64,000 nucleotides of DNA from Candidatus Bathyarchaeia archaeon. GTDB lineage: Archaea; Thermoproteota; Bathyarchaeia; Bathyarchaeales; Bathycorpusculaceae. A model generated the notes under the pieces. The model was given only the letters and a program-made list of their open reading frames with translations. It searched no databases and was not told the DNA's origin. Shown one piece after another: positions 5,794-53,700 of the stretch (position 1 is the stretch's first letter; each line of letters begins with the position of its first letter). The stretch spans positions 32,001-96,000 of the forward strand of contig JBEKBM010000001.1 in assembly GCA_050015395.1 (NCBI GenBank). The letters are read 5' to 3'. A program made the position numbers and the translations under genes.

Positions 5794-6279
5794 TTATCCT
5801 CCGCCAGGAGCTCCGTGAAACGGCGCGTTTTCCCACAGCAGTTTCCACCAATCTTCCTCTGTTATGGTTTCTCCGTGAACAATTATCTCTAAAACCATCT
5901 TTAGCATAGCGTGGTGTCTACATTCATCAGCTAATATGGAGTTTAAGAGAAACACAACCTTCTTGTTTTCAACATTAGGTATCATGGCTTCAAGGCGCTT
6001 AATTAGCTTAGATTCTATCTCAATGTGTTTTTCTACGAGTGCTCTTTGCTGATCAAGATGCTCCTGCGTTAATGCTGTAGGAGTACCAGTCAGTAGGGTA
6101 ACGGCTGCCGAGTAAAGTTCAGCGTGCTTCACAGAATCCAGCGAGACACCCTTCAGGACGCCTTTAACAGCCGGGTTCTTCATGCCAACTAGCGCTTTTT
6201 CAAGGGAAGCAACTATTTCGTTTTCAATCACTATTTGATTTTTCAAAAATTCAATAAGATTATTCTTTGGTTTTTCCAT
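5794..6279 (-). CDS. Ferritin-like / rubrerythrin-family diiron protein
   Basis: E...DSVKH and E...DECRHH four-helix diiron pattern. Confidence 0.8.
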   Translation of the reverse strand: MEKPKNNLIEFLKNQIVIENEIVASLEKALVGMKNPAVKGVLKGVSLDSVKHAELYSAAVTLLTGTPTALTQEHLDQQRALVEKHIEIESKLIKRLEAMIPNVENKKVVFLLNSILADECRHHAMLKMVLEIIVHGETITEEDWWKLLWENAPFHGAPGGG

Positions 6280-6300
6280 TCTTTTCTCCCTCTACTTATG

Positions 6301-6744
6301 TTAAGTCCTGTTCATCAAGTTTTCGGAAATTCTTTTTCCTAAATCCTTACAGGCGCTAAGCATTTTTTCGTCAGGAATATACTTCACTAGTAAAGGCGGT
6401 TCAACAACTTGCATCTCAAACTTATTTTTCATAATTTCCAAAATAAGTCTAGGTGCTTCACCGCTCCAACCATATGAACCGAATGTGGCGCCGACTTTAC
6501 CCTTCAAACTTATGCCCTTCACCGCAACTTCCTCGAAAAGCTTTTTGAAATCAATAGGCATCTCATGATGATAAGTAGGTGCCCCAACAACTAAAGCATC
6601 AAAGCTACTTAGTTCTTCAGGTTCAATGTGAAAATTTAATTCTACCCTAATCTTATCGTTGATTTGTGCTCCCTCAGCTACTGCTCTCGCCATTTTTTCA
6701 GTATTTCCTGTCCTGCTATAATATAAAACAAGAATTTCCTTCAT
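6301..6744 (-). CDS. Flavodoxin-domain protein
   Basis: YYSRTGNTEKMA, GAPTY, FGSYGWSGEA. Confidence 0.92.
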   Translation of the reverse strand: MKEILVLYYSRTGNTEKMARAVAEGAQINDKIRVELNFHIEPEELSSFDALVVGAPTYHHEMPIDFKKLFEEVAVKGISLKGKVGATFGSYGWSGEAPRLILEIMKNKFEMQVVEPPLLVKYIPDEKMLSACKDLGKRISENLMNRT

Positions 6745-6828
6745 AAAACCAAATAAAAAATAACCTTATTTCAATATTTGCCTTTCGGTCATTAAAACAA
6801 GAAAATAAAACTATAAGAAAAAAGAGCT

Positions 6829-7038
6829 TTATTCACGCCTTTTTCCTCTGCTCTCTCCGCCTTTCCTTCCTATTTCCCTGTAGAATTCGGAACCGCGCTC
6901 CTCAGCTACTTTTTCTCCACCTTTCCTACCGATCTCTCTGTAAAATTGCGGACCCCTTTCTCGAGCCACTTTTTCGCCGCCTTTTCTTCCAGCTTCTTCA
7001 CGTGTCATCTTCCTTTTTTCTTCGCTTTTAACTACCAA
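6829..7038 (-). CDS. KGG-repeat / Em-GsiB-like general stress hydrophilin
   Basis: EAGRKGG / FYREIGRKGG repeats; GGAGGTGA SD upstream of TTG. Confidence 0.9.
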   Translation of the reverse strand: MVVKSEEKRKMTREEAGRKGGEKVARERGPQFYREIGRKGGEKVAEERGSEFYREIGRKGGESRGKRRE

Positions 7039-7110
7039 AATTATTCACCTCCCTTTATTTCCTCGAAAAAGGCTGTCTTGTTATCTACTCAAGGACAGCC
7101 TTTAAGCGTG

Positions 7111-7134
7111 TGTGGTTATCAAAAAACAATCACA
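7111..7134. promoter_or_regulatory. Conserved dyad TGTGGTTAT-N6-ACAATCACA just upstream of TATA of KGG gene
   Basis: Same motif at 8409-8432 and 9222-9245. Confidence 0.65.
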
Positions 7135-7236
7135 AACCTACCCGGGCGAGCGTAGGTAACCACAGTAATCTCTATTTTTCAAAATAGGAAACTAACGCCA
7201 AGAAATTAAATTAAAGAAAACGGAATGTTTAGTTAG

Positions 7237-7521
7237 TTATTCTATTTTTCCTATTTCTTTTGTTATATCTATTGGCGATTTATAGGTTTTATCCGGCAAC
7301 TTGTTTAATAAATCCATTACATCGTCTGGGGCATCCTTATCTTGTGCTTTGTCGACCAAGTTCTTTTTTTCTGCTGGGTAATGCATGCCAGCAAGATATT
7401 TTTCCACTATAGCTGGGCTAACGTGACCAGATTTTCCGCTTCTATTTGTATATTGTCGTCGTGCCCCTCTACCTTGACCTATGCCTACGCGCCTACTTGT
7501 TTGAGCTTCTTCTCTACTCGT
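7237..7521 (-). CDS. DUF2795-family protein, apparently with ACG start (or start-codon-lost pseudogene)
   Basis: Manual translation: (T)SREEAQ...VSPAIVEKYLAGMHYPAEKKNLVDKAQDKDAPDDVMDLLNKLPDKTYKSPIDITKEIGKIE*; GGAGGTGA SD 6 nt before ACG. Confidence 0.75.
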   Translation of the reverse strand, partial: TSREEAQTSRRVGIGQGRGARRQYTNRSGKSGHVSPAIVEKYLAGMHYPAEKKNLVDKAQDKDAPDDVMDLLNKLPDKTYKSPIDITKEIGKIE

Positions 7522-7583
7522 TGTCCTTCACCTCCATACTCTTAAACGAGTTAACTGGAAAAAATAAAAAACATGCTTACCGT

Positions 7584-7781
7584 TTATTCTTCTTCGTGCT
7601 CTTTTCCTTCCTCAATAAGTTTTCGAACTTTTTGTCCACCTTTGCTACCTATCTCACTGTAAAATTCAGATCCATGAGTCTCCAACGTCTTCAGTCCACC
7701 CATCCGACCAGCCTCCTCAACAGTCATCTTTCCCTTCTTTTTCGCTTCACTCAAACACATCACCTCCAAAATATAAGCCAA
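7584..7781 (-). CDS. KGG/Em-GsiB-like stress protein (probable start TTG, MSEAKKKGK)
   Basis: MTVEEAGRMGG...EFYSEIGSKGG. Confidence 0.88.
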   Translation of the reverse strand: MAYILEVMCLSEAKKKGKMTVEEAGRMGGLKTLETHGSEFYSEIGSKGGQKVRKLIEEGKEHEEE

Positions 7782-7819
7782 CTAAAAATTTAGAAAAATT
7801 CTTCAAAATTAACCTGTAG

Positions 7820-7994
7820 TTACTCCATCTCTTGCCCTATTCCTTCCTAATTAAGCTCGCGACAACCCTATACCTGCTGTACTGCCATACATATTCATAG
7901 AAACCTCGCCTATGTGCCCCTCAGATCTTTCGCCGCTTTTCTGCTTGCCTTTCCTTCCAGCTTCTTCAACACTCACTGGGTTTCTTTCCGTCAA
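7820..7994 (-). pseudogene. Degenerate, frameshifted KGG-family copy
   Basis: MTERNPVSVEEAGRKG then shifted-frame RGFYEY...RVVASLIRKE matching the C-terminus of paralogs. Confidence 0.6.
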
Positions 7995-8063
7995 TGCATT
8001 TCACGTTCCTAAGGAAAACAAGATACGTTTGGAATGCAAAATGCTTAAAATTCAGTAAAATTT

Positions 8064-8330
8064 CTATTCCTCTTCATATTCTTTTCCGGCTTGAATAAGC
8101 CTGCGAACTTTTTGCCCGCCTCTATGGCCTGCTTCTTCAAGGCTTGTTTTCCCTCTTGCTTCCATTGTACCTTCGTGCTGCTTTGCTCGCTTAGAACCAC
8201 CTTTGCTACCTATCTCACTGTAAAATTCAGGTCCATGAGTCTCAGACGTCTTTTCTCCGCCCATCCGACCAGCCTCCTCAACAGTCATCTTTCCCTTCTT
8301 TTTCGCTTCACTCAAACACATCACCTCCAA
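8064..8330 (-). CDS. KGG/Em-GsiB-like stress protein
   Basis: EEAGRMGG, EFYSEIGSKGG, EEAGHRGG. Confidence 0.88.
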   Translation of the reverse strand: MEVMCLSEAKKKGKMTVEEAGRMGGEKTSETHGPEFYSEIGSKGGSKRAKQHEGTMEARGKTSLEEAGHRGGQKVRRLIQAGKEYEEE

Positions 8331-8408
8331 AACATAACAACTGCTTTTTTTCTCAACTTCTTAATCGCTTTCTCAATTTTCTAGCCTGAAACAAAACTTT
8401 TAAACATA

Positions 8409-8432
8409 TGTGGCTGTCTTAGCACAGTAACA
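8409..8432. promoter_or_regulatory. Conserved dyad TGTGGCTGT-N6-ACAGTAACA upstream of TATA
   Basis: Second copy of the KGG-promoter motif. Confidence 0.65.
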
Positions 8433-8556
8433 ACGGAAAGGAGCTTTTTTTATGTCAAAAATAGAATTTAGACTATAAATTAGGTCCAAAACTAGAAACG
8501 ATAGAAAGTCTTGGATCAGTTATTCAGATTAAAACTAAGGATAAGCGCAGTTTTTT

Positions 8557-8751
8557 CTATTCTTCTTCGTGCTCTTTTCCTGCTTGAATAAGCTTACGGA
8601 CTCTTTGCCCACCTTTCGGTCCGCCTATCTTTCCACCCTTGCGACCTATTTCACTATAGAATTCTTCTCCATGGGTTTCAGATGTTTTTAGTCCGCCTTT
8701 CCTTCCAGCTTCTTCAACCGTCATTTTACCTTTTTTCTCCTCTCTCGACAA
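8557..8751 (-). CDS. KGG/Em-GsiB-like stress protein
   Basis: MSREEKKGKMTVEEAGRKGG...FYSEIGRKGG; GGAGGTGA SD. Confidence 0.9.
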   Translation of the reverse strand: MSREEKKGKMTVEEAGRKGGLKTSETHGEEFYSEIGRKGGKIGGPKGGQRVRKLIQAGKEHEEE

Positions 8752-8836
8752 TACCCTTCACCTCCATTAAAAACAAACAAAGTGTTTGATATCTAAAGAA
8801 CTGGAAATTAACAAGTAGTTACAAAAATAAGCTTTT

Positions 8837-9151
8837 TTATTCTTCATGTTCTTTGCCCACTTGAATTAGTTTTCGGACTCTTTGCCCACCTCTATGGCCT
8901 GCTTCTTCGAGGCTTGTTTTTCCCATAGCTTCACTTGTTCCTTCATGCTGCTTGGCCCTCTCAGAACCACCTTTGCTGCCTATCTCACTGTAAAATTCTG
9001 GGCCACGTTCCTGAGAAACTTTCTCGCCGCCTTTACGACCGATTTCTTCATAAAATTCTCGCCCATGGGTTTGAGCGGTTTTTTCTCCACCTTTCCTTCC
9101 TGCCTCAGCAACAGTCATCTTGCCTTTTCTGTGCTCTTCACGCATACTCAA
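8837..9151 (-). CDS. KGG/Em-GsiB-like stress protein (longest paralog)
   Basis: Four KGG/RGG repeats; GGAGGTGA SD. Confidence 0.9.
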   Translation of the reverse strand: MSMREEHRKGKMTVAEAGRKGGEKTAQTHGREFYEEIGRKGGEKVSQERGPEFYSEIGSKGGSERAKQHEGTSEAMGKTSLEEAGHRGGQRVRKLIQVGKEHEE

Positions 9152-9221
9152 AAAAATTCACCTCCTATTAAACAACGGAAAACTTATCAATATTAGAGCC
9201 GAATAACCGCTCATAAACTTA

Positions 9222-9245
9222 TGTGGTTGTGGCATAACAGTAACA
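9222..9245. promoter_or_regulatory. Conserved dyad TGTGGTTGT-N6-ACAGTAACA upstream of TATA
   Basis: Third copy of the KGG-promoter motif. Confidence 0.65.
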
Positions 9246-9293
9246 TGCCAACTAAGCAAAATGGAAGATTATTTCATATGGACAAATTACACA

Positions 9294-9470
9294 AAAAAAC
9301 AGCTTTTTTTATGTTGAAAAGCACCGTTCTGCATGCAAAGTGCGCGGTCTTCGTTCTATGCACATCTATGTTGAATCATATTTGAAGCCTATTAGGATCA
9401 TCTAGTAGACCGGGTAGGTAGGCTGAGCACACACAAATTACCCTAAGACAAAAAACGAGAGCTAAATACA
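9294..9470 (+). repeat. Dispersed non-coding repeat A, copy 1
   Basis: About 180 bp aligns to the reverse complement of 21137-21315; core TATGTTGAAAAGCACCGTTCTGCATGCAAAGTGCGCGGTCTTCG identical. Confidence 0.9.
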
Positions 9471-9531
9471 GATTCATAAGTTAATTTAAATATCTCGGAC
9501 AGGTCAACTTTATAATCATTGGGTAACCTGA

Positions 9532-11623: not shown

Positions 11624-11720
11624 CGGGCCCGCTGGGATTTGAACCCAGGATTTTCGGCTAACCCCCGCTTTGAGAAGCGTCCGGAGGCCGACGCCTTAAT
11701 CCGTACTAGACTACGGGCCC
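11624..11720 (-). tRNA. tRNA-Arg(CCG) with ~21-nt intron at canonical 37/38 position
   Basis: GGGCCCG acceptor stem, TCGGC-CT-CCG-G[intron]A-GCCGA anticodon arm, GGTTCAAATCC T-arm; no encoded CCA. Confidence 0.9.
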
Positions 11721-42327: not shown

Positions 42328-43206
42328 TTGGAACAGCAACAATTCAAAAAAATCGGAATTTTTAAGTGCGGCAACATTGGGACATCACCAAATCTTGAAC
42401 TTCTCCTCGATGAATTGGCTGACCGAAAAGACATCAAAGTTCGAACAGTCACTACAGGATCAAAAATGAACCTCGAAGACGTTGAAGAAGCATTCCCCAA
42501 AATCTTAGAATTCAACCCAGATATTTTGGTCATGATATCGCCTAATACGGCCTTGCCGGGACCGGCGAAGGCTAGAGAGCAGATTTCAAAAAGCGGTCGG
42601 CCGGGCATTGTGATCTCCGATTTTCCAGCAAAACGGGCAAAAGCAGAAATGGAAAGTCAAGGATTAGGCTACATAATCATCACCGGTGACCCTCTAATCG
42701 GAGCCAGAAAAGAATTCTTGGATCCCATTGAGATGGCGATATTCAACTCAAACGTCAACAAAATACTTGCGATCACTGGCGTTTACAGGATAGTTCAACA
42801 AGAAATTGATAAAGTGATTTATTCGCTTGAAACTGGCCAGACTCCAACTCTACCCAGATTGGTAATAGACATGAATGCCATACGAGACAATTCAACTTTC
42901 AACAATCCGTATGCAAAAGCGAAAGCAATGGCTGCCTATGGCATGGCGGAGAAAATTGCAGAGGTAGACACTCAAGCATGCTTCATGGAGAAAGAGAGTG
43001 AAAAGTACATTCCCCTAGTCGCCTGTGCGCATGAGATAGCTCAAGCATCTGCGAGATTAGCTGAAGAAGCTCGTGAAATTGAGAAATACAATGACACTTT
43101 GCTTAGGAAACCTCACGCGAAAGACGGCAGGCAGAAGGTCAAGACCAGACTGATGCTCGCGCCGACTTTTCCCGAAGAATTCTATGAAAAAAGCGGTTTA
43201 CAGTAG
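42328..43206 (+). CDS. mtd: F420-dependent methylene-H4MPT dehydrogenase
   Basis: KCGNIGTS...LLLDELADRKDI, GSKM, ISPN...PGP, IGARKEFLDPIEMAIFN, NPYAKAKA, RKPH. Confidence 0.93.
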   Translation: MEQQQFKKIGIFKCGNIGTSPNLELLLDELADRKDIKVRTVTTGSKMNLEDVEEAFPKILEFNPDILVMISPNTALPGPAKAREQISKSGRPGIVISDFPAKRAKAEMESQGLGYIIITGDPLIGARKEFLDPIEMAIFNSNVNKILAITGVYRIVQQEIDKVIYSLETGQTPTLPRLVIDMNAIRDNSTFNNPYAKAKAMAAYGMAEKIAEVDTQACFMEKESEKYIPLVACAHEIAQASARLAEEAREIEKYNDTLLRKPHAKDGRQKVKTRLMLAPTFPEEFYEKSGLQ

Positions 43207-43210
43207 TCAA

Positions 43211-43240
43211 ACTGTATATACTGTATATACCCATATATAA
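43211..43240. promoter_or_regulatory. Tandem 9-bp repeats ACTGTATAT-ACTGTATAT-ACCCATATA upstream of the MtdB-like gene
   Basis: Direct repeat visible; related ACTGTATGTA upstream of the PhoU gene (46106-46115, minus strand). Confidence 0.45.
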
Positions 43241-43309
43241 CGTATTTCGACTAAGTATATATTTTTCACTGCTATTCATGTATGACCAATAATAAAGAGG
43301 CAAAAAAAT

Positions 43310-45037
43310 ATGAAAGTACTTGAAGTAAAACCGTTGGAAAACAAGAACTTAACTGTAATGATACAGGAAAAAGAATACAATGAGCCTTTTCAGCTTTTCG
43401 AAAAATCATCATCCGCAAAACTAAATGTTCTCCAAGCGCTCCTAAAACCATCAATCGGCTTCTACAAATTTGTCGAGAATGTGGTTGCCAAAGTAAATAT
43501 AGACTTCGTCACGGAAGAGCTAGGCAATCGATCTCAAAAAGAATTCTTCGAAGATAACATCTTAGCCGACGTGTTCCAAAAAAGCAGCATTCCTTTCTTC
43601 CCCGTTGACATTGACAGCGACGCCAAAACCTATCTTGAATCTGCTTTTGACAAAAAAACAGCATTGAGAGACAACATAATCAAGAACATAGAAAACCTAA
43701 ACAAACAAAAAAGCAGCGATTCCACAGAGAGAGACTACCTCGTTGCATACGGACAGAGTTTACAATCCGAAATAGAGGAACAAGAACACGAAGTCAATTT
43801 CTCAATAAGAGAAAGCTGGATCGTCATGGATATCATGGAGCACGCAAGAGAAATCAAGAACAAAGACGAGATAACATGCCTGCACATTTGCAGCCCCGAA
43901 CACGTGACAGGAATTAAGCAACTGCTAGAATCGGTCAACGCCAACGTCGAAATCGCGAAACTCTCCAAAAAGATAATCTCAACTCAGGTTGAAACTCCCT
44001 CTTCACAGGAAATAGAAAACTGGCTCCAATCAATGCAGATCCAGGTTAAGCCCGTTATCGGAAAAGCAGTTGAAAACGCACCTTACCTGCTGTTCTACCT
44101 CGACACCGACGTTAAAGCAAGCCCATTTGACATCTGCATGGCCTACGATGCCGGATACAACGCTGTCATTCCTTACGAGAACATCATTCCAGAAGACGCC
44201 AAAACGATAGTGCTAGATGCTTTACTCTCCAGAGGACCAAAGGCCGTTAAGCACACGGTCTTTCTGATCGGAGGGAAAAACGCTGAAAGAGCCGAACAAG
44301 TCTTTGAAGCTGCGAAAGATTCGATGTTTCCCCCATTCAAAACAAGTATAATCGTGGACCCTGCTGGTGCATATACAACTGCCGCTGCAATGGTTGCAAA
44401 AGCTGAAAATGCACTCGAGGCAAGCAAGCTCGGCGAATTGAAAACCAAAACTGTCGCTATCCTCGGCACAGGTGCTGTAGGACAAATAGCTGCGGTTCTC
44501 TTGGCTAAAATAGGATGCAATGTAATGATTGCCAGCCTTAATCCGAAACGCGTTGACGGAAAAGAACACGCTGAGGGCATAGCTAAACTTCTAGCCAAGG
44601 ATCACGGCGTTCAAGTCGAAGGCATCTTCGCTCCAACCCCAGCTTCGAAAATTGAAATCATAAAGAAAGCCGATGTAGTGATGTGCGCAGGAGTAAGAGG
44701 CGTTCGCATCATAGACAAAGAAATGCTGAATGAAGTCAAAACCATGAAGGTCCTAATTGACATAAACGCAGTACCACCATTCGGAGTCGAAGGAATAGAA
44801 TTAAAAGATGACATGCGAGAAATGCTGCCTGGAATCTTCACAATCGGAGCACTCACAGTTGGAGATCTAAAACACAAACTTGAAAAAGAGATTCTACGCG
44901 ACGCACGATCCAACGGAAAAGAAGTATACAACTACAACGGTGATCTGCCACTTGCACGAAAACTGTTGCAGAAAGAGCTATTCCCCACCAAGTTGACGCT
45001 GACTTTGAGCTATCCCCCTTCAAAAAATCCTAAGTAG
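43310..45037 (+). CDS. NAD(P)-dependent methylene-H4MPT dehydrogenase (MtdA/B/C family) with ~250-aa extra N-terminal domain
   Basis: SPFDICMAYDAGY, SRGPK, FLIGG, MFPPF...DPAGAYTTAAA, GTGAVG, DINAVPPFG, GALTVG. Confidence 0.88.
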   Translation: MKVLEVKPLENKNLTVMIQEKEYNEPFQLFEKSSSAKLNVLQALLKPSIGFYKFVENVVAKVNIDFVTEELGNRSQKEFFEDNILADVFQKSSIPFFPVDIDSDAKTYLESAFDKKTALRDNIIKNIENLNKQKSSDSTERDYLVAYGQSLQSEIEEQEHEVNFSIRESWIVMDIMEHAREIKNKDEITCLHICSPEHVTGIKQLLESVNANVEIAKLSKKIISTQVETPSSQEIENWLQSMQIQVKPVIGKAVENAPYLLFYLDTDVKASPFDICMAYDAGYNAVIPYENIIPEDAKTIVLDALLSRGPKAVKHTVFLIGGKNAERAEQVFEAAKDSMFPPFKTSIIVDPAGAYTTAAAMVAKAENALEASKLGELKTKTVAILGTGAVGQIAAVLLAKIGCNVMIASLNPKRVDGKEHAEGIAKLLAKDHGVQVEGIFAPTPASKIEIIKKADVVMCAGVRGVRIIDKEMLNEVKTMKVLIDINAVPPFGVEGIELKDDMREMLPGIFTIGALTVGDLKHKLEKEILRDARSNGKEVYNYNGDLPLARKLLQKELFPTKLTLTLSYPPSKNPK

Positions 45038-46058
45038 ATACACTAAACGCGCGATTTATCGCGATCTTAGCTATGTTTGCGGCACAGTCCGCAATTCTTT
45101 TTATGTCATCTCTGACGGAGCAGATTGCACAAACCAATTGCTCATTTTTTTGTTTTTCTGCGAAGGCTTTAGCGGCTATTTCCTGATCCAACGTCGCTAT
45201 TTCTTCTCGTTGCCTAAGTATCTCAACTGATTTCGAGACATCCTTCGAAAAGAAAGTGTCCACCGCCTTTACGTATAAATTCACAGCTTCATTTCCTGCA
45301 ATGAACATTAGCTCCAATACGTTCTCCGGAATTTTCAGTTGACTCCCGTCTAGCATTATTACGTGCCGCGCTACGTCCGCTGAATTGTCTGCCACGTCCC
45401 GAATCATGTAAACCAGAGTCTGATAATCCATACATTCCAACGGGTCGATACGAAACTCATTCGCCAAAACGGAGTCTTGTGCAGCATTGCGGAGCACTCG
45501 GATAAGGAAATAGGCGAAATGGTACACATCATCGTCAAGAGAGAAAACAGCTTTTGCCAATGCTATGTCTTTGTTTTTCAGCGATTTAATCGCATCCTCC
45601 CCCATTGACTGAGAGATCAGATGCATCCTCTGTACAGTTTGCTTTAGATCCGCCTTAGTTTCGTCCATTAAGGTTTGAACGAAAACACCCCTAGAGCTAG
45701 CCTCCATAATTCTCATGTATAACATTCCCGCGGTCTTGCGGATTGCCTTTATCTGCGGGACGGAAAAAACTTTTTCTGAGATAAGGGTGATTCCGCTGTA
45801 TCCGTTTAAGTAGCACCCCACTATCTTCATCGTAATCAGCAGCTCGTCTTCATTCGGGTCAATGCGAAGCGTTGTCTCTTTTGTCTCTGTCTTTTTCTTC
45901 GCGCCAGGATAAATAACCAAAGAGCGGTCGCGTTGAATGGCAAATGAGACAACATCGCCTTTCTTCAATTCGTTTAGCTGCATCCAATTTTTGGGAAGAG
46001 AAATTACCAAAGAAGATCTGCCAAGCGACATAACCCTTCGTTCCATACTGTCCCTCAA
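45030..46058 (-). CDS. AbrB-PhoU regulator (phosphate uptake regulator family)
   Basis: RRVMSLGRSSLVISLPKNW; LDDDV; DIKRIAD...NIA. Confidence 0.88.
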   Translation of the reverse strand: MRDSMERRVMSLGRSSLVISLPKNWMQLNELKKGDVVSFAIQRDRSLVIYPGAKKKTETKETTLRIDPNEDELLITMKIVGCYLNGYSGITLISEKVFSVPQIKAIRKTAGMLYMRIMEASSRGVFVQTLMDETKADLKQTVQRMHLISQSMGEDAIKSLKNKDIALAKAVFSLDDDVYHFAYFLIRVLRNAAQDSVLANEFRIDPLECMDYQTLVYMIRDVADNSADVARHVIMLDGSQLKIPENVLELMFIAGNEAVNLYVKAVDTFFSKDVSKSVEILRQREEIATLDQEIAAKAFAEKQKNEQLVCAICSVRDDIKRIADCAANIAKIAINRAFSVST

Positions 46059-46284: not shown

Positions 46285-47448
46285 CTACTTGAAAACGCTT
46301 TCAATCCTGTCACAAGCTTCCTCTATCTTTTCCTTCGGTTGAGTCAGGGTAAATCGAACATGATTTTCTCCGCATTCACCAAAACCAACCCCTGGCGTAA
46401 CCACCACCCCAACATTCAGCAGTCTGGTCGTGAACTCCATCGAATCGGAGTTGCAGTTTAGCCAAAGGTAGAAGGTGGCTTTTGGTTTGTCGCATTTGAA
46501 GCCTAATGAGCACAATCTTTCAATGAGCACGTCCCGCCTCTCTCGGTAAACTTGGTTGTTTTTTTTCAAGAAATCCGGCGGTTCATTGTTCTTGTAGCTT
46601 TGAAGGGCCTTGACCGCTACTTTTTGAATGTAAACTGGCGGTCCGGAATCGATTTGTGACTTGACCTTGGTTAATCCAGTGACGAGTTGCTTGTTTCCAA
46701 CGGCGAAGGCAATGCGGTCGCCTGTCATGTTGAAAGTTTTTGATAGCGAGTGAAACTCGATGGCGACGTCCATGGCACCATCAACCTCCAGAATGCTGGG
46801 TGCGCGGTAGCCGTCGTAGGTGACTTCTGAATAGGCGTTGTCATAGCAAAGGATGATGTTGTTGTCTTTAGCGAAGTCGACTGCTTCTTTGAGGAATCCT
46901 TTGTCAACGGTGGCTGCCGTTGGGTTGTTGGGGTAATTGAGAAACATCATCTTCGCATTCTTGGCGTCTACCGCTTCAAAATCTGGCGTGAAGCCGTTTT
47001 CCTCAAGCAACGGTAACGGCACCGCTGTGCCATCGCAGAGGATTGTGCCACCGTTAGCGTACACTGGGTAAGCAGGGTCAGGAACTAACACTCGGTCGCC
47101 TGGGTTTATGAATGCTCGAGCAATGTTTGCTATGCCTTCCTTGGAGCCTAAAAGCGCAACCACTTGGTCTTGCTGCAGGTCAACGTTGAATCGTTTCTTG
47201 TACCAGCCTGAAACTGCGTCTCGGAAGTCGGGTTCACCCTGGCTGAAAGAGTAATTGTGATTCTTCGGGTTCGCGACTTCTTCCTTGAGCGCTTCAATGA
47301 CAAATCTTGGGGGCGGAAGGTCTGGATCACCTATGCTCAGTGAAATTAAATCTATGCCTTGCGATTTTTTTTCCTTAATAATTTTCTCAATTTCAGCAAA
47401 CAGATAAGGTGGTAACCGTTTTATTCTCTCGGCATTTTCAAACGTCAT
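46285..47448 (-). CDS. dapL: LL-diaminopimelate aminotransferase
   Basis: LPPYLFA, NYPNNPT, DNAY, SLSKTFNMTG.R; last gene of dap operon. Confidence 0.85.
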   Translation of the reverse strand: MTFENAERIKRLPPYLFAEIEKIIKEKKSQGIDLISLSIGDPDLPPPRFVIEALKEEVANPKNHNYSFSQGEPDFRDAVSGWYKKRFNVDLQQDQVVALLGSKEGIANIARAFINPGDRVLVPDPAYPVYANGGTILCDGTAVPLPLLEENGFTPDFEAVDAKNAKMMFLNYPNNPTAATVDKGFLKEAVDFAKDNNIILCYDNAYSEVTYDGYRAPSILEVDGAMDVAIEFHSLSKTFNMTGDRIAFAVGNKQLVTGLTKVKSQIDSGPPVYIQKVAVKALQSYKNNEPPDFLKKNNQVYRERRDVLIERLCSLGFKCDKPKATFYLWLNCNSDSMEFTTRLLNVGVVVTPGVGFGECGENHVRFTLTQPKEKIEEACDRIESVFK

Positions 47449-47450
47449 GT

Positions 47451-48293
47451 TTATACCTCTTTGAATAGCGTTCCCTCAAAAACTTTTTCAGCTGCACCGC
47501 TCAAAAACAAGCTTTTAGCCACTTCAACCTGCAAATCACCACCCAGCACGTGAACAGTAACTTTGTTTCCAACTTTTCCAAGCTTGTTTGCAGCAGCCAC
47601 AGCAGCGCAGCTTCCTGTACCGCACGCTAAGGTTTCTCCGCAGCCCCTTTCCCAAACACGGACTTTCAACTCGCAGGGGTTTAGGACTTGAACGAAGCCG
47701 ACGTTGGTTCTTTTCGGAAAAGCCTTATGATTCTCCACTTTTGGACCGATTTGCTCTACTGGAAAATCGTCTGCTTTGTCAACGAATATTATGCAGTGCG
47801 GATTGCCCATTGAAAGGCATGTTACCTTGAAGACTTTGCCGTCAACCTCTAAGTTCTCGTTGATGCATGTGCCTTGTCCGACCATGGGAAGGGAGCTTCT
47901 TTCCCAGTTTGGCGAGCCCATGTCCACCTTGACAGCGCTAACTTCTTTGCCCTTGAAGGTTAACCAGACAAGCTTTAAGCCTGAAAGTGTTTCAACTGCG
48001 AACTCTTGCTTGGGAACGATTTTGTTTTCGTAGCAGTACTTGGCAAAGCACCGTATGCCATTGCCGCACATTTCTGCTTCGCTACCGTCAGCGTTGAAAA
48101 TCCGCATCTTAACATCAGCCGCTTTAGAGTTAGAAACCAGTAAGAGCCCGTCTGCTCCAACAGAAAGGCGCCGCTCACAAAGCCTCTTAGCTAATTCTGC
48201 AGCTTGCTTACCGCTAATTTTCTCTTCTCTGTTGTCGATCACTATGTAGTCGTTGCCTAAACCATGCATCTTCCAGAAACGCATCAAGGACAC
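47451..48293 (-). CDS. dapF: Diaminopimelate epimerase
   Basis: KMHGLGNDY, EMCGNG, GNPH, ERG.GETLACGTG. Confidence 0.97.
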   Translation of the reverse strand: MSLMRFWKMHGLGNDYIVIDNREEKISGKQAAELAKRLCERRLSVGADGLLLVSNSKAADVKMRIFNADGSEAEMCGNGIRCFAKYCYENKIVPKQEFAVETLSGLKLVWLTFKGKEVSAVKVDMGSPNWERSSLPMVGQGTCINENLEVDGKVFKVTCLSMGNPHCIIFVDKADDFPVEQIGPKVENHKAFPKRTNVGFVQVLNPCELKVRVWERGCGETLACGTGSCAAVAAANKLGKVGNKVTVHVLGGDLQVEVAKSLFLSGAAEKVFEGTLFKEV

Positions 48294-49609
48294 TCTGCCA
48301 TCCGCTGATTAGCGGTTAAATTGTCAAGCTGTTCTCGTTCCCTAATCACGACGGGCTTGCCTTGCCTAATCATGACTTCTGCAGCTCGCGGCCTTGAGTT
48401 GTACTGTGAGCTCATGCTGAAACCGTATGCTCCAGCGTTCAAAACCGCCAGCAAGTCACCCTCCTCGACCACAGGTAGCTCTCGGTCTTTGGCTAAGGCG
48501 TCGCCTGACTCGCAGATTGGACCTACCACATCATAGGTTTCCTTATCAGCCGCTGCAAGCTTATTGGCGACTAGTATTGGATGGTAGGAACCATACATCG
48601 TTGGTCGTACCAGCGTGTTGAAGCCTGCATCCACGCCGACGAATTTTTTTGTAGGCGTAATCTTGACAGTGTTAACGGCTGTTAAGAGGATACTTGCGTC
48701 ACAGACCAAGTATCTGCCTGGTTCAACGCACAAAAAGGGTTTACCGAGACCATATTCAGCAACCTTACCCTTGAACGGCGCCACCACTTTCGAGACGAAG
48801 GCTACTAAATCGAACTCTTGGTCCTCTGGCTTGTAAGGAACCCCAAAACCGCCGCCGATATCGATGAATTCAAACTCGATGCCTATTTCATCATGAACCC
48901 GCTTAGCTATGCTCAACAGTTTATCCACCGCCAAAACGTAAGGTTCTACGTCAAGAATACCCGAGCCAATGTGCATGTGAATACCAAATCGTTCGACCCT
49001 TGCCTTCTTAGCAGTCGCATAAGCCTTTAGAGCATCTTCTTCCGTTAAACCGAACTTTGAGTCTGGACCAGCAGTTATGCAATGGCTATGATGGCCTGCG
49101 CCGATTTCTGGGTTAACACGAACCGACAATGTCGGCGGCACAGCAATCTTTAGCAGCCTATCTAGCTCTGATTGAGAATCCACGTTTACTGTAATGTTGG
49201 CGTCTGCTAGAACTTTTAACTCGTCATTTCGGACGCTGGTTCCGGTGAACATTATGCGATCTTGTGTGTACCCGCTGATTAAGCCCATGAACACTTCGCC
49301 GGGGCTGACAGTGTCCAAGTATGCACCTTCTGACTGCAGAATCTTTAGAACCGTGAGGTTAGAGTTTGCTTTGGCAGCGTAATAGACGCGGACGTACTTG
49401 TAATTGCGGATTAAAGCGTCATGAAGCCGATTGTAATTATCTCTAATACGTTTCTCGCTTACGACGTACAAGGGAGTATCGTATTTTTCAGCCAACTCCT
49501 TAACCGAGAAGCCATCAAAGAACAAGCTGCCTTTTCGGTCCTCTAAGGGTTCACGAAGCTTTCTCTTTACCATGTTGTTTACACCAGTTGAATGCGTTAT
49601 TTTGAGCAA
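48284..49609 (-). CDS. lysA: Diaminopimelate decarboxylase (start probably ATG of MVKRK)
   Basis: YAAKAN, HIGS, GGG, EPGR, GPICESGD, GAYG. Confidence 0.96.
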   Translation of the reverse strand: MLKITHSTGVNNMVKRKLREPLEDRKGSLFFDGFSVKELAEKYDTPLYVVSEKRIRDNYNRLHDALIRNYKYVRVYYAAKANSNLTVLKILQSEGAYLDTVSPGEVFMGLISGYTQDRIMFTGTSVRNDELKVLADANITVNVDSQSELDRLLKIAVPPTLSVRVNPEIGAGHHSHCITAGPDSKFGLTEEDALKAYATAKKARVERFGIHMHIGSGILDVEPYVLAVDKLLSIAKRVHDEIGIEFEFIDIGGGFGVPYKPEDQEFDLVAFVSKVVAPFKGKVAEYGLGKPFLCVEPGRYLVCDASILLTAVNTVKITPTKKFVGVDAGFNTLVRPTMYGSYHPILVANKLAAADKETYDVVGPICESGDALAKDRELPVVEEGDLLAVLNAGAYGFSMSSQYNSRPRAAEVMIRQGKPVVIREREQLDNLTANQRMAECP

Positions 49610-49612
49610 TAG

Positions 49613-50671
49613 TTAAGCTAAGCCTTTAGCTACAAAGAGCTCAGCACTCAGAATGCCTGCGCCTGCACCACCACGAACCGTATTGTGCCCAAGACACATG
49701 TACTTGAAAGTCATAATTGGGTCCTTGCGGATTCTGCCAACTACAACGCTCATGCCGCAGCCTGTATCTCGGTCAAAACGTGGCTGAGGCCTGTTTTTCT
49801 CATGCCGAACCACGATTGGGTTCGCTGGGGCAGAGGGCAATTTGAGCTTTTGCGGTTCACCGCTAAAATTGGCAAAGGCAGCTTCTATTTCTTCTATCGA
49901 GGGGTCCTCTGCGAGCTTGATGAAGACTGATTCTAAATGCCCATCCTTTACATGGACTCTGTTGCAGCTTGCGCTAAGCTTGAAATCAGCGTTCTGGACA
50001 ACTTTGCCGTTGAAGGTGCCAAGTATCTTTAGGGCTTCCGCTTCCATTTTCTCTTCTTCGCCTGAGATAAAAGGAACAACGTTGTCGATTATGTCTAATG
50101 ATGCAACACCTGGGTATCCTGCTCCGCTAAGCGCCTGCATGGTGGAGACAATAATTTGCTTTAAGCCAAATTGCATCAAAGGCTTTAGCGTAATTGCAAG
50201 TTGGATGGTACTGCAGTTAGGATCCGTCGTTATGAAGCCTTTCCAACCTCGTGACTTCTGCTGAATCTTAATTAAATCAACATGATCAGGGTTAATCTCT
50301 GGAATGATTAAAGGAACATCTTTTTCCATGCGGTGCGCGCTTGCCTTACTGAAAACCGGATAAAGCGCCGCAAACTCAGACTCAACTGAACCCGCCAAGT
50401 CTCCTGGAAGAGACGAAAACACCAAATCCACGTCGCCTGACTTCTCCACTGACTCAACATCAGCGTTTGCTACGGGCATTTCAGCAATCTCTTTAGGCAA
50501 GTTTGACTCCATAACCCAATTGCAAGCATCCCCGTATTTTTTGCCTGCTGACCGCTCTGAAGCAGCAAGCACCTCAATTTGGAACCATGGGTGCCCCTGT
50601 AATAGTTGAATGAACCGTTGTCCAACGGCTCCGGTTGCGCCTAATATGGCTACTTTACGCTTAGACGACAT
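49613..50671 (-). CDS. asd: Aspartate-semialdehyde dehydrogenase
   Basis: GATGAVGQ, PNCST, QALSGAG, HNTVRG. Confidence 0.96.
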   Translation of the reverse strand: MSSKRKVAILGATGAVGQRFIQLLQGHPWFQIEVLAASERSAGKKYGDACNWVMESNLPKEIAEMPVANADVESVEKSGDVDLVFSSLPGDLAGSVESEFAALYPVFSKASAHRMEKDVPLIIPEINPDHVDLIKIQQKSRGWKGFITTDPNCSTIQLAITLKPLMQFGLKQIIVSTMQALSGAGYPGVASLDIIDNVVPFISGEEEKMEAEALKILGTFNGKVVQNADFKLSASCNRVHVKDGHLESVFIKLAEDPSIEEIEAAFANFSGEPQKLKLPSAPANPIVVRHEKNRPQPRFDRDTGCGMSVVVGRIRKDPIMTFKYMCLGHNTVRGGAGAGILSAELFVAKGLA

Positions 50672-51836
50672 TTTCTATTGCTTCCTTTGCTCTTTTGATT
50701 TGGCTTTCCTCGATAAAAACGTTAATGGTTGCCTTACTCGTTGTAACCTCAATGATATTAATTCCAGCTTGACTTAAAGCAGTGGAGATCTTTGCTATGC
50801 CACCAGGTGAATCAATGAAGATAGGATTGCTAATTTGGACCATGGCAACGTTTTCCCTATGAGTTATCGCCTTGGAGCCTTTTATGCCATGAAGTTTGTT
50901 TAGGACTTGAGTGACGTCGCCGTCTGCGGTGAAGATTGTTACTGATTTTCTTCCAGAGCTGACACCGTAAACTGGTTTTTTGCTAAGCACTGAGAAAATG
51001 TTTCTGATATTTTCTGCGTTAACGTTGCAAACTACGCTTATGGCAATCAAACCTTCTTGTGTTAAGATTTCAGCCGAATTCTGGTTGAAAGATCCTGTGA
51101 TTTCTGTGCCGCCACAAGCAAGGTTGCCTGAGGCAAAGTCTACTATTCTGAGGGCTTGATTTGGTAGTTTATATTTGAGGGCTTCAGCCTTGACGATTTT
51201 TGCCCCGCCTTGTGCCAAATCAAACATTTCGTGAATTTCCAACTTATTGAGTAGTCTTGCGTCTGAAACTACTTTTGGGTCTGCTGAGAGTACTCCGCTT
51301 GTCTCCTTCACCAGAATGATTTCGTCTGCGGATATACAGTTGGCTAGTAATAGCGCTGTTGTATCGCTTCCGCCTCTTCCCAGAGTAGTGACTCTACCCT
51401 GCGAGTCCTTTCCAAGGAAACCACACACAACAGGGATAACAGTACCTAGTAGGGGTTTGACGAATTGCTCGGTTAAAGATGCGGTTTTTTCCAAAATGGG
51501 TTTAGCGTGGAGAAAGTTTGAGTCGGTTATGATGGGCCAGTTCTCGTATGCTGGGTCGAATAGTTTAGCGTTTAAGCCTTGGGCTCTTAGTGCTGCGCAA
51601 AAGATTCGGGCACTTGTTCGTTCACCTATAGATATTATCTCTGCCCACTCAGCGTCGGGAACGCCTATTTGAGAAACCGTTTGGATTAGGCTATCAGTCA
51701 TTTTGCTCATAGCTGAAACTACAACAACAATTTCTTTGAAAGGCGCTTCTGCTATAAGCCGCGCTGCTTGTTGGATTTTCTCACCTGACGATAGGTCAGC
51801 GCCTCCGAACTTGATAACAACCCTGATAGCCAACAT
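50661..51836 (-). CDS. lysC: Aspartate kinase
   Basis: KFGG, VVSAM, TLGRGGSDTTA, ACT domains. Confidence 0.94.
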   Translation of the reverse strand: MLAIRVVIKFGGADLSSGEKIQQAARLIAEAPFKEIVVVVSAMSKMTDSLIQTVSQIGVPDAEWAEIISIGERTSARIFCAALRAQGLNAKLFDPAYENWPIITDSNFLHAKPILEKTASLTEQFVKPLLGTVIPVVCGFLGKDSQGRVTTLGRGGSDTTALLLANCISADEIILVKETSGVLSADPKVVSDARLLNKLEIHEMFDLAQGGAKIVKAEALKYKLPNQALRIVDFASGNLACGGTEITGSFNQNSAEILTQEGLIAISVVCNVNAENIRNIFSVLSKKPVYGVSSGRKSVTIFTADGDVTQVLNKLHGIKGSKAITHRENVAMVQISNPIFIDSPGGIAKISTALSQAGINIIEVTTSKATINVFIEESQIKRAKEAIENVV

Positions 51837-51845
51837 GCTTCACTG

Positions 51846-52667
51846 CTAAGATAAGCCTAGAACGTCGGCCATGCTGAAGACTTTAGGCTGATTCTGCTTG
51901 TTTAACCATTCTGCTGCGTAAACTGCGCCTTGAGCAAAAACGTTACGGGAGAACGCTGTGTGCTCTATGCGTAGCATCTCGTATGGTCCTGCTACGATTA
52001 AGTCATGGATTCCTGGGACGCCTCCTGCTCTTAAAGCTGTGATTTCAAGTTCGCCAGGCTGCCTTGGGCTTATGCCTTCTCTTCCAGAAACGACTTTTGT
52101 GTAACCGCGAGTGTTAGCGATGATTTCGCCTAGTTTCTTTGCTGTTCCGCTTGGCGCGTCCTTCTTGCCTGTATGATGGATTTCGTTTATACTGAAATCG
52201 TATCCTGGCGGAAAAGCCTTCAAAGCTTCAGCTAGCTTGAACAGTATATTGACGCCTACTGAATAGTTTGGCGAGAACACGGCTGGAACTTTGCCTGACA
52301 TGGCGTTTACTACTTGGCGGTTTTGCTCTGGAGTGAAACCTGTGGTGCCAAGGATTATGCGTTTTCCAAGGTTAGCAACGATGGGTATGTTAACGACTTC
52401 AGCGGCGGGCATTGTGAAACTAACGTAAGTGTCTGCGTCGTATACAGCTTCATTTAGTCTGTCGGAACTAAGAATTTGGGTGTCCGAATTGGTGATGCCA
52501 AGTTCTCGCAAGGTTTTGCCTGTGCATGGATTATTTGGAGCCTCGATTGCACCAACTATTTGATGACCTTTTGAGGTAGCTTCATTGATAATAGCGTTGC
52601 CCATTCTGCCTGCGGCGCCTGCTACACATATTTTAAGCATAGAAGAGTCCCTCCAGGTACCTCTCAT
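51846..52667 (-). CDS. dapB: 4-hydroxy-tetrahydrodipicolinate reductase
   Basis: GAAGRMG, GTTG, EIHH..KKDAPSGTA. Confidence 0.96.
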   Translation of the reverse strand: MRGTWRDSSMLKICVAGAAGRMGNAIINEATSKGHQIVGAIEAPNNPCTGKTLRELGITNSDTQILSSDRLNEAVYDADTYVSFTMPAAEVVNIPIVANLGKRIILGTTGFTPEQNRQVVNAMSGKVPAVFSPNYSVGVNILFKLAEALKAFPPGYDFSINEIHHTGKKDAPSGTAKKLGEIIANTRGYTKVVSGREGISPRQPGELEITALRAGGVPGIHDLIVAGPYEMLRIEHTAFSRNVFAQGAVYAAEWLNKQNQPKVFSMADVLGLS

Positions 52668-53700
52668 TGTATAATCGCTCTTTCAAGTCTACGTTGAAGT
52701 AGTCTGCTATGGGCTGAAGGATTCCAGGATTATTCTCGTACACTTTTCTGGCGTTTGTGAGAACTACTTCTAAGCCGTTGCGGGTCATTTTACCCAGAGG
52801 TTGCCTGCATGGACCAGACGGCATGCCTAACATGTTCATTAACGTCTTGTAGGCTAAGGGGTTTCGGGCTTTGCATGCTACTGTGCCGTATGGTGTTTGC
52901 TCTTGTGTTTTCACGGTGACTATGCTAAAGAGTGGTTGGAGTGCTTGAGCGATTCTGGTGGCTTCTTCCTGATTACCGTCAAGAATGTAGTGTGTCATGT
53001 CAGCTACTGCGCGAGGTGTAACGTTTGATGTAACTGAGATTACGCCGCTTGCATTAATATCGGGTGAAGTCATCATTGCTAATGTTTTGTCGTCGTCTCC
53101 TGAGAGGATGTCGAAGTCTTCGCCGCAAAGTTTGCGCGTTAACTCCATGTTTTTCAAATCGCCGGTGGCTTCCTTTACGCAGCGGACGTTTGGGTATTGC
53201 TGGTGAAGTATTGCTAGGTCTTGTGGGTAAAGTTGGGTTCCTGTCCTGCCGGGAATAATGTATGGAATTACTTGGACTTCAGGGAACTGCCGTGCGATTG
53301 GTTCAACGTATTCCCTGCGTATTTCCAGTGAACTCGGCCCGTTATAGTATGGGTCTACGAGCAGAACGCATTTCACGCCTAAGTGCTGGGCGTGTTCCGT
53401 GCCTTCGATTGCTTCCTGCGTTGAGTTGCTTCCTGTTCCAGCTATAGTTAAGACTTTTGCACCTGCACATTCGTGGGTTTTTTCGATTACCTTGTTGTGT
53501 TCATTCCAGTCTAAGGTGGGACTTTCGCCGGTTGTGCCGACGGCGAGTATACCTTTTACACCTTCTTTTATTTGGAAATCTACCAGTTGACGTAAGCCTT
53601 CGTAATCGACTTGGCGATTACGAGTCATGGGGGTTATTAGCGCAGTGTAACAGCCACTTAATCTTACCATTTTTAATTCCTCGTTATAGGTAATGAACAA
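52633..53700 (-). CDS. dapA: 4-hydroxy-tetrahydrodipicolinate synthase
   Basis: ALITP, GTTGES, PYYN, KEATG, SGDD. Confidence 0.95.
   Translation of the reverse strand: MFITYNEELKMVRLSGCYTALITPMTRNRQVDYEGLRQLVDFQIKEGVKGILAVGTTGESPTLDWNEHNKVIEKTHECAGAKVLTIAGTGSNSTQEAIEGTEHAQHLGVKCVLLVDPYYNGPSSLEIRREYVEPIARQFPEVQVIPYIIPGRTGTQLYPQDLAILHQQYPNVRCVKEATGDLKNMELTRKLCGEDFDILSGDDDKTLAMMTSPDINASGVISVTSNVTPRAVADMTHYILDGNQEEATRIAQALQPLFSIVTVKTQEQTPYGTVACKARNPLAYKTLMNMLGMPSGPCRQPLGKMTRNGLEVVLTNARKVYENNPGILQPIADYFNVDLKERLYNERYLEGLFYA

Follow-up and report, generated by a model that had tools for sequence, protein, structure and literature searches.

The window analysed here is a 64,000-nucleotide stretch of DNA (contig JBEKBM010000001.1, positions 32001-96000) from the genome of a Candidatus Bathyarchaeia archaeon (assembly GCA_050015395.1; 2.59 Mb, 42 contigs, 98.9% complete, 3.3% contaminated). 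It harbors mtd, which encodes an F420-dependent methylene-tetrahydromethanopterin (H4MPT) dehydrogenase (Mtd), followed by a gene for a second dehydrogenase, of the MtdA/B/C family, with an additional N-terminal domain that is called X here. The locus appears to be a conserved two-gene module of Bathyarchaeia, in which Mtd is accompanied by an X-bearing companion lineage of the MtdA/B/C family. It is tentatively proposed, with somewhat less than even confidence, that the companion enzyme depends on Mtd and that the pair passes hydride between F420 and NAD(P) through methenyl-/methylene-H4MPT. The module has the following features, in window coordinates.

42328..43206, plus strand: mtd, canonical F420-type Mtd of 292 residues with a TTG start; PF01993, NF002162
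43207..43309, plus strand: spacer between mtd and the second gene, 103 nt and A/T-rich, with TATATA repeats and a GAGG 9 nt ahead of the ATG
43310..44104, plus strand: X domain, residues 1-265 of the second protein, modelled as an alpha/beta core plus a long helical hairpin (about residues 103-181)
44105..45037, plus strand: MtdA/B/C-type NAD(P) dehydrogenase domain, residues 266-575
44123-44365, plus strand: Mpt_N, PF09176, residues 272-352, 89.9 bits (cut-off 27)
44465-44482, plus strand: GTGAVG dinucleotide motif, residues 386-391

A preliminary description of this DNA had mtd followed by a co-oriented MtdA/B/C-type gene, with no other H4MPT genes in the window. Both statements were borne out. 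The open reading frames (ORFs) at 42328-43206(+) and 43310-45037(+) have the expected profile matches, and none of the 72 other ORFs of the window matched an H4MPT-pathway family in a Pfam scan (E<=1e-5). By sequence, the product of 42328-43206 is a canonical F420-dependent Mtd. It matches PF01993 (MTD) over residues 8-279 with 396.1 bits (cut-off 25) and the NCBIfam equivalog NF002162 with 390 bits (cut-off 297), and it aligns over residues 11-277 with the solved Mtd chain of Methanopyrus kandleri (1qv9_A; phmmer E 4.9e-82). The genome has one copy of mtd and one copy of the second gene. The TATATA repeats and the GAGG of the spacer are putative promoter and ribosome-binding elements, respectively.

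The second gene (ATG start, same strand, 103 nt 3' of mtd) encodes a protein of 575 residues. Residues 266-575 are, as judged from the Mpt_N domain, the Rossmann motif and the overall fold of the model, an MtdA/B/C-type dehydrogenase. Rossmann-type Pfam matches lie at residues 370-490, and the dinucleotide-binding motifs are intact. The protein matches solved MtdA by phmmer (E 5.7e-33), and its AlphaFold model (pLDDT 86.4) resembles MtdA of Methylorubrum extorquens (6tlk_A/1lu9_A) with a Foldseek E of 1e-23, a target TM of 0.93, a root-mean-square deviation of 2.1 A and 30-31% identity. The full protein is about twice as long as the solved MtdA chains (287-303 residues) and does not have their two-domain architecture of about 290 residues. 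Thus, the family assignment of the preliminary description holds for residues 266-575; the fused 265-residue X had been missed. Close homologues of the window protein are recorded from Candidatus Bathyarchaeota or Bathyarchaeia. Databases already label its family by the Mpt_N domain, and no NCBIfam equivalog naming the 575-residue protein was matched. Compared with MtdA and with the short, X-less members of the family, the X-fused enzymes have an insertion after the second Rossmann strand. This strand ends without an acidic residue, with Ser, Lys and Arg nearby, a cofactor loop that would be compatible with NADP. Membership in Fno, the archaeal enzyme that mainly makes NADPH from F420H2 according to the review PMC8498797, was considered and rejected; PF03807 reached only 18.9 bits (cut-off 21.6) on the Rossmann part, and TIGR01915 was not matched.

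Contigs from RNA libraries of four peat runs (four studies; at least 95% likeness) include a relative that is 97-98% identical to the fused ORF of the window. Contigs matching 43303-45043 and 43319-45030 span the entire fused ORF in one piece, with 42-43 differing letters. The fusion therefore did not arise from misassembly of the window genome. In two runs mtd was partly covered, and the spacer between the two genes was covered by none; such contigs prove neither transcription, ends nor levels.

The evidence for a companion role comes from a class-wide survey, for which one fixed draw of 251 Bathyarchaeia genomes (at least 80% complete) was used for every family. Mtd was matched in 156/251 genomes (155 over the cut-off), Mpt_N in 69/251 and X in 30/251. 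X is fused to Mpt_N in 28 of the 30 X genomes; one genome (G030) has a standalone X only, and in another (G020) the gene is cut by the contig end. Mtd is present in all 30. Another 41 genomes carry Mpt_N without X. Mtd did not pass the cut-off in any of them; the match in one (G170) was weak (E 5.4e-4). The commonest state in the draw is Mtd without any Mpt_N protein. Mtd is retained without X in the genera g28, g34 and g7, and X without Mtd was never seen. Because X occurs only with Mtd, and the X-less relatives only without it, this distribution says that the dependence is one-way, with the X-fused enzyme the likely partner of Mtd and not its replacement.

The same division is seen in the phylogeny. 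A maximum-likelihood tree was built from 42 Mpt_N-type domains (the window protein, 21 X-fused, 18 X-less and two fusions to the methylene-H4MPT reductase Mer), which sample 40 fetched loci and not all 69 genomes. The tree has two clades, each with 100/100 support. The "companion" clade holds all 22 X-fused enzymes, together with two X-less members (G151 and G140) that come from Mtd-less genomes and sit on branches of 0.87 and 0.78. The other, "replacement" clade consists of 16 short forms plus the two Mer fusions, every one from an Mtd-less genome. A tree of 55 Mtd sequences follows taxonomy, with Mtd from X-bearing and X-lacking genomes intermixed, and the Mtd and companion trees show the same split of the family f1.

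Conservation of the gene arrangement was the subject of a further survey. It used the best 80 of 144 species-level loci, which are 56-95% identical, and so skewed to near relatives, and overlap the class draw. The nearest belong to Bathyarchaeia metagenome-assembled genomes (MAGs) of peat, bog and sediment. In this set the linkage is strongly conserved, with mtd upstream and co-oriented in 69 of the 76 loci having at least 1200 nt of upstream sequence. Among the 28 fused genes of the class draw, 14 follow mtd directly in the same orientation, 3 adjoin it divergently (family f7) and 10 are elsewhere; the position of one was left unassigned.

The arrangement could reflect inherited synteny only, that is, common descent within one order with no functional coupling. 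Most of the adjacent cases fall in the related families f1, f2, f7 and f11, the 80-locus sample contains the closest relatives only, and an unrelated gene with AbrB and PhoU domains is equally strongly conserved alongside the pair. This explanation is nevertheless very improbable. The joint presence or absence of X and Mtd recurs within four genera (g1, 5/14 genomes, window genome included; g18, 1/2; g19, 1/3; g32, 3/7), and co-occurrence holds in the 10 genomes, of families f6, f11, f17 and f22, in which the genes are unlinked. In addition, linkage is kept in f7 though the orientation differs, and both gene trees split f1 alike.

The X domain is the most unusual part of the locus. It has no match in Pfam or NCBIfam, is 40-85% identical among fused homologues, and is modelled on its own with a pLDDT of 86.5 and a pTM of 0.82. 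An exhaustive HMMER search of 1.84 billion representative proteins returned only 75 relatives at E<=1e-3. In most of them X is fused to the N-terminus of an Mpt_N protein; a set of standalone proteins of 200-260 residues was also found. In one protein (P0152) the order is reversed, Mpt_N being at 16-95 and X at 304-489; since fusions exist in both orders, X is tied to the dehydrogenase. A standalone X-like protein (P0166) comes from a Promethearchaeota MAG, and the Atlas neighbours of X-like proteins include Promethearchaeota clusters with scores of 0.94, 0.92 and 0.91. No loci related to P0166 were found in the genome and metagenome contigs searched.

Comparison with solved structures gave no convincing fold for X. 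The best Foldseek hit in the PDB was FlaH/KaiC-like (E 0.018, TM about 0.26), and the best hit of a wide VIA-align search (Z 9.9) covered the helical hairpin only. A CbiL-type methyltransferase was considered for the alpha/beta core, and no assignment was made; the match (Z 8.3-8.5 over 122-123 residues) is within the noise range of the tool. A relation of X to Mtd was rejected at an hhalign probability of 0.2%. Kinship of X with TraB/PrgY/GumN (PF01963) was suggested only by its feature score in the Atlas, 0.82 to a TraB/GumN cluster; X has no match in Pfam at E<=0.01, and the window genome has no TraB gene for comparison.

What the pair does must be read against the rest of the genome. The preliminary description had proposed a check for fno, mch, mer and F420 biosynthesis genes, and the outcome was mixed. 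The Fwd cluster, two copies of Ftr, Mch, CdhC, CofC, CofD (360.9 bits) and a CofE-like protein are present, as are two FrhB-like proteins, one with a ferredoxin-type domain, and NfnAB-like genes. In the same genome a true Mer, MetF, and CofH and CofG (FO synthase) were not found, and Fno (TIGR01915) had no match over the cut-off at 98.9% completeness. FolD and Fhs were found neither in this genome nor in four relatives.

It is likely that the second enzyme acts on C1 units bound to H4MPT, and not to tetrahydrofolate (H4F), because H4F enzymes were not found and because the short clade includes a fusion to true Mer. The fusion occurs in family f30, in two genomes without Mtd (L032:3381-5300(-) in G080 and L033:3378-5390(-) in G229). 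These proteins of 639-670 residues have an N-terminal Mpt_N-type dehydrogenase and a C-terminal true Mer, which matches TIGR03555 with 446.9 bits (cut-off 348.7). As predicted from its parts, the fusion would be a two-step methenyl-to-methyl-H4MPT enzyme with two different cofactors.

No known enzyme for the conversion of methylene- to methyl-H4MPT was found in the window genome, though Fwd, Ftr, Mch, Mtd and CdhC are present. At C13:15400-15882 is a TIGR03560-like F420-dependent LLM (luciferase-like monooxygenase) oxidoreductase (221.7 bits, cut-off 231.4) that is a possible stand-in for Mer. A 98-residue ORF at C27:37310-37522(+) matches the C-terminal part of Mch only (profile positions 240-310, 85.4 bits) and lies divergently beside the full-length mch.

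By family assignment only, the two enzymes encoded in this one genome thus serve the same C1-H4MPT couple and differ in hydride partner. We infer the substrates, the cofactor and the coupling of the pair. Interconversion of methenyl- and methylene-H4MPT is the predicted reaction of both, with F420 for Mtd and NAD(P), probably NADP, for the second enzyme. Hydride exchange is proposed as the joint function because it is the simplest joint role of two dehydrogenases on one substrate couple. By way of the C1-H4MPT couple that they share, the two enzymes would bring F420H2 and NAD(P)H into equilibrium, an Fno-like transhydrogenation, and the C1 pathway could at the same time draw on either reducing pool. 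X may mediate association or control. The potential of NAD(P) is about -320 mV and that of methenyl-/methylene-H4MPT about -390 mV. The E0' of F420 is -340 mV, as quoted in PMC10667645. With these values, F420H2 to NAD(P)H would be the easiest direction of the cycle, and it is the one that Fno serves in archaea. The hydride shuttle had already been suggested in the preliminary description and is partly supported. Gene adjacency, the occurrence of X only with Mtd (30/30), the Mer fusion of relatives, the failure to find MetF, FolD and Fhs in the genome and the intact motifs are in its favor; the absence of Fno does not discriminate.

A serious rival is that the second enzyme is simply another methylene-H4MPT dehydrogenase, with which the Wood-Ljungdahl or C1 pathway can use NAD(P)(H) when F420 is scarce or redox demands require it, with no cycle and with X as a regulatory or oligomerisation add-on. 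Where Mtd is lacking, the short relatives evidently suffice for the reaction by themselves, and PMC7886697 describes the Bathy-6 "Mtd" as being of the NADH type. FO synthase was not found here and CofH is over the cut-off in only 18/251 genomes, which may make F420 limiting, and the intact cofactor motifs are equally compatible with this reading. However, a simple isoenzyme would be expected on its own in some genomes, as is seen for the short clade, whereas the X-fused form occurs with Mtd in 30/30 genomes. The Mtd-less members of the X-fused clade have also lost X and have long branches, and the alternative leaves unexplained an extra conserved domain that is needed only with Mtd. It is thus possible but, on balance, doubtful.

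The proposed hydride shuttle has several points against it. The first is the supply of F420. CofC, CofD and a CofE-like protein are present in the window genome, and CofG and CofH are not found, so the F420 supply is itself uncertain. Across the draw, CofH is sparse compared with F420-type Mtd, which is over the cut-off in 155/251 genomes, and this suggests FO salvage or an alternative FO synthase. Second, the absence of Fno was rejected as specific support, since Fno is rare across the whole order with or without the pair; it is over the cut-off in 2/30 X genomes and is found at E<=1e-10 in 4/42 genomes of family f1, 0/15 of f11 and 0/6 of f6. Genomes with the short enzyme alone manage without Mtd and without Fno. 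Third, the two FrhB-like proteins could handle F420 redox without NAD(P). Fourth, a general purpose of supplying F420H2 to Mer was rejected; canonical Mer is over the cut-off in 7/30 X genomes, and the window genome is not among them. Finally, the two genes are unlinked in 10/28 genomes, and the co-occurrence could arise if the X-fused enzyme were merely redundant with the short clade and lost jointly with Mtd.

A more specific form of the hydride shuttle would make X a docking domain on the Mtd oligomer, giving a dedicated F420H2:NAD(P)+ transhydrogenase complex in which H4MPT is held or channelled as a hydride relay. This seems unlikely. Complex prediction with the Mtd and X alignments gave a score of 0.32, and one control gave 0.31, which speaks neither for nor against binding. 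If the docking idea were true, the pair would be a non-homologous replacement of Fno in abundant archaea of peat and sediment, and the standalone X homologues, including those of Asgard archaea, would be Mtd-associated factors.

The most constant neighbour of the pair is a regulator-like gene.

45030..46058, minus strand: AbrB(MazE-like)+PhoU-domain gene, 342 residues, PF01895 and PF04014, convergent with the second gene and overlapping its 3' end by 8 nt

It lies convergently 3' of the second gene in 71 of 73 scorable loci among the best 80 of 144. In G030 and G072 it flanks the standalone X gene in divergent orientation. A role as an exclusive third member of the module was rejected; high-identity orthologues occur in X-less genomes, including G154, G160, G195, G230, G219, G142, G122 and G151. 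The AbrB+PhoU gene is a conserved neighbour and is listed only as such. At other loci, Ftr adjoins mtd (L019 and L022), or the neighbours are CofD and an FbiB-C-like gene (L017). In G072 (L031), NfnAB/SudAB-like genes (5978-8207(+); NF004862 438.6 bits, gltA-type TIGR01316 655 bits) are directly 3' of the X-fused dehydrogenase, and a 260-residue standalone X paralogue is directly 5'. Two contigs attributed to bacterial MAGs (L126 and L158; Candidatus Limnocylindrales and Candidatus Sulfotelmatobacter) have the full arrangement of mtd, X-fused and PhoU genes at 69-74% identity and are probably mis-binned archaeal contigs.

A further possibility is that the second enzyme has a different job, outside the C1-H4MPT pathway. 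It could act on another pterin or substrate, contribute to the synthesis of a cofactor, or regulate Mtd while being catalytically idle itself. Consistent with such a job, X could be placed in no known family or fold, the protein is not named by any NCBIfam equivalog, its clade has the insertion after the second Rossmann strand, and its most constant neighbour is the regulator-like AbrB+PhoU gene. Against it, Mpt_N and the Rossmann motifs are well conserved with MtdA (30-31% identity, target TM 0.93), the sister clade is fused to true Mer, the neighbours include Mtd, Ftr and CofD, and no H4F C1 enzymes were found in the window genome. A different job is therefore improbable.

Other parts of the window have features of their own. 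The region 6745-9531, about 2.8 kb, contains no ORF of more than 115 residues and has a strong C-over-G skew (GC skew -0.30 at 6001-8000). Within it, 6854-6984 is a 60-nt repeat of 2.2 copies, and no Rfam family matched the region at gathering score. A tRNA match at 11624-11720(-) covers 97 nt, compared with the 71 positions of the model, a length that suggests a tRNA gene with an intron. Just beyond the AbrB+PhoU gene, seven minus-strand ORFs (46285-53700) match Pfam families for class I/II aminotransferase, diaminopimelate (DAP) epimerase, pyridoxal phosphate (PLP)-dependent decarboxylase, semialdehyde dehydrogenase, amino-acid kinase with ACT domains, DapB and DHDPS. The cluster may be read as a lysine cluster of the diaminopimelate pathway.

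An understanding of the module bears on the physiology of Bathyarchaeia, which rank with the most abundant archaea of sediment and peat, and in which the feeding and draining of F420 in the H4MPT-type C1 pathway is an acknowledged gap. The module is a concrete, assayable candidate to fill it: both enzymes are soluble, and by acting together they would connect F420 and NAD(P) with no need of Fno. The analysis also defines the X domain family, a genomic rule (companion clade with Mtd, replacement clade without) and a natural MtdB-like-Mer fusion. Should the coupling prove real, three states would be needed in place of two wherever a metabolic reconstruction of these archaea scores Mtd as present or absent.

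Part of this is already known. An NAD(P)-type "Mtd" of Bathy-6, closer to the methylotroph enzyme than to F420-dependent Mtd, is noted by Loh et al. 2021 (PMC7886697). Supplement file 2 of that paper lists it as PF09176/mtdB and marks cofG as "NP", and a passage of the text states that "the source of F420H2 ... remains unclear". Neither the fused form nor an Mtd/MtdB-type cycle in archaea was described in the literature searched, whose scope left out subscription journals. Nor did the same search turn up the X domain, the division into a companion and a replacement clade, the strict rule of X with Mtd, or the MtdB-like-Mer fusion. The short "Mtd" of Bathy-6 belongs to the same Pfam family and archaeal class as the window enzyme. 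It has about 310 residues, belongs to the other clade, and occurs in genomes without F420-dependent Mtd, which it replaces; in contrast, the window enzyme carries X and comes from a distinct clade whose X-fused members are always found with Mtd.

Among characterized enzymes, MtdA of M. extorquens (1lu9, 6tlk), an NADP-dependent methylene-H4MPT/H4F dehydrogenase, has the same Mpt_N and Rossmann architecture and fold as residues 266-575 and, as reported in PMC9012536, uses both H4MPT and H4F. Unlike MtdA, the window protein is archaeal, has 575 residues with an extra N-terminal domain of 265 residues, and carries the insertion after the second Rossmann strand. The MtdB-like-Mer fusions of f30 likewise tie an Mpt_N-type dehydrogenase to an F420-dependent H4MPT enzyme, but the partner is Mer, it is at the C-terminus, and the proteins belong to the short clade in Mtd-less genomes. 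In the Hmd-Mtd cycle of hydrogenotrophic methanogens, two dehydrogenases work on one methenyl-/methylene-H4MPT couple with different hydride partners, and hydride is passed between them. Compared with that cycle, the second partner here would be NAD(P) and not H2, the second enzyme is unrelated to Hmd, and the coupling is proposed by analogy. The net reaction proposed for the pair is that of Fno; however, Fno is a single enzyme that transfers hydride directly and needs no H4MPT.

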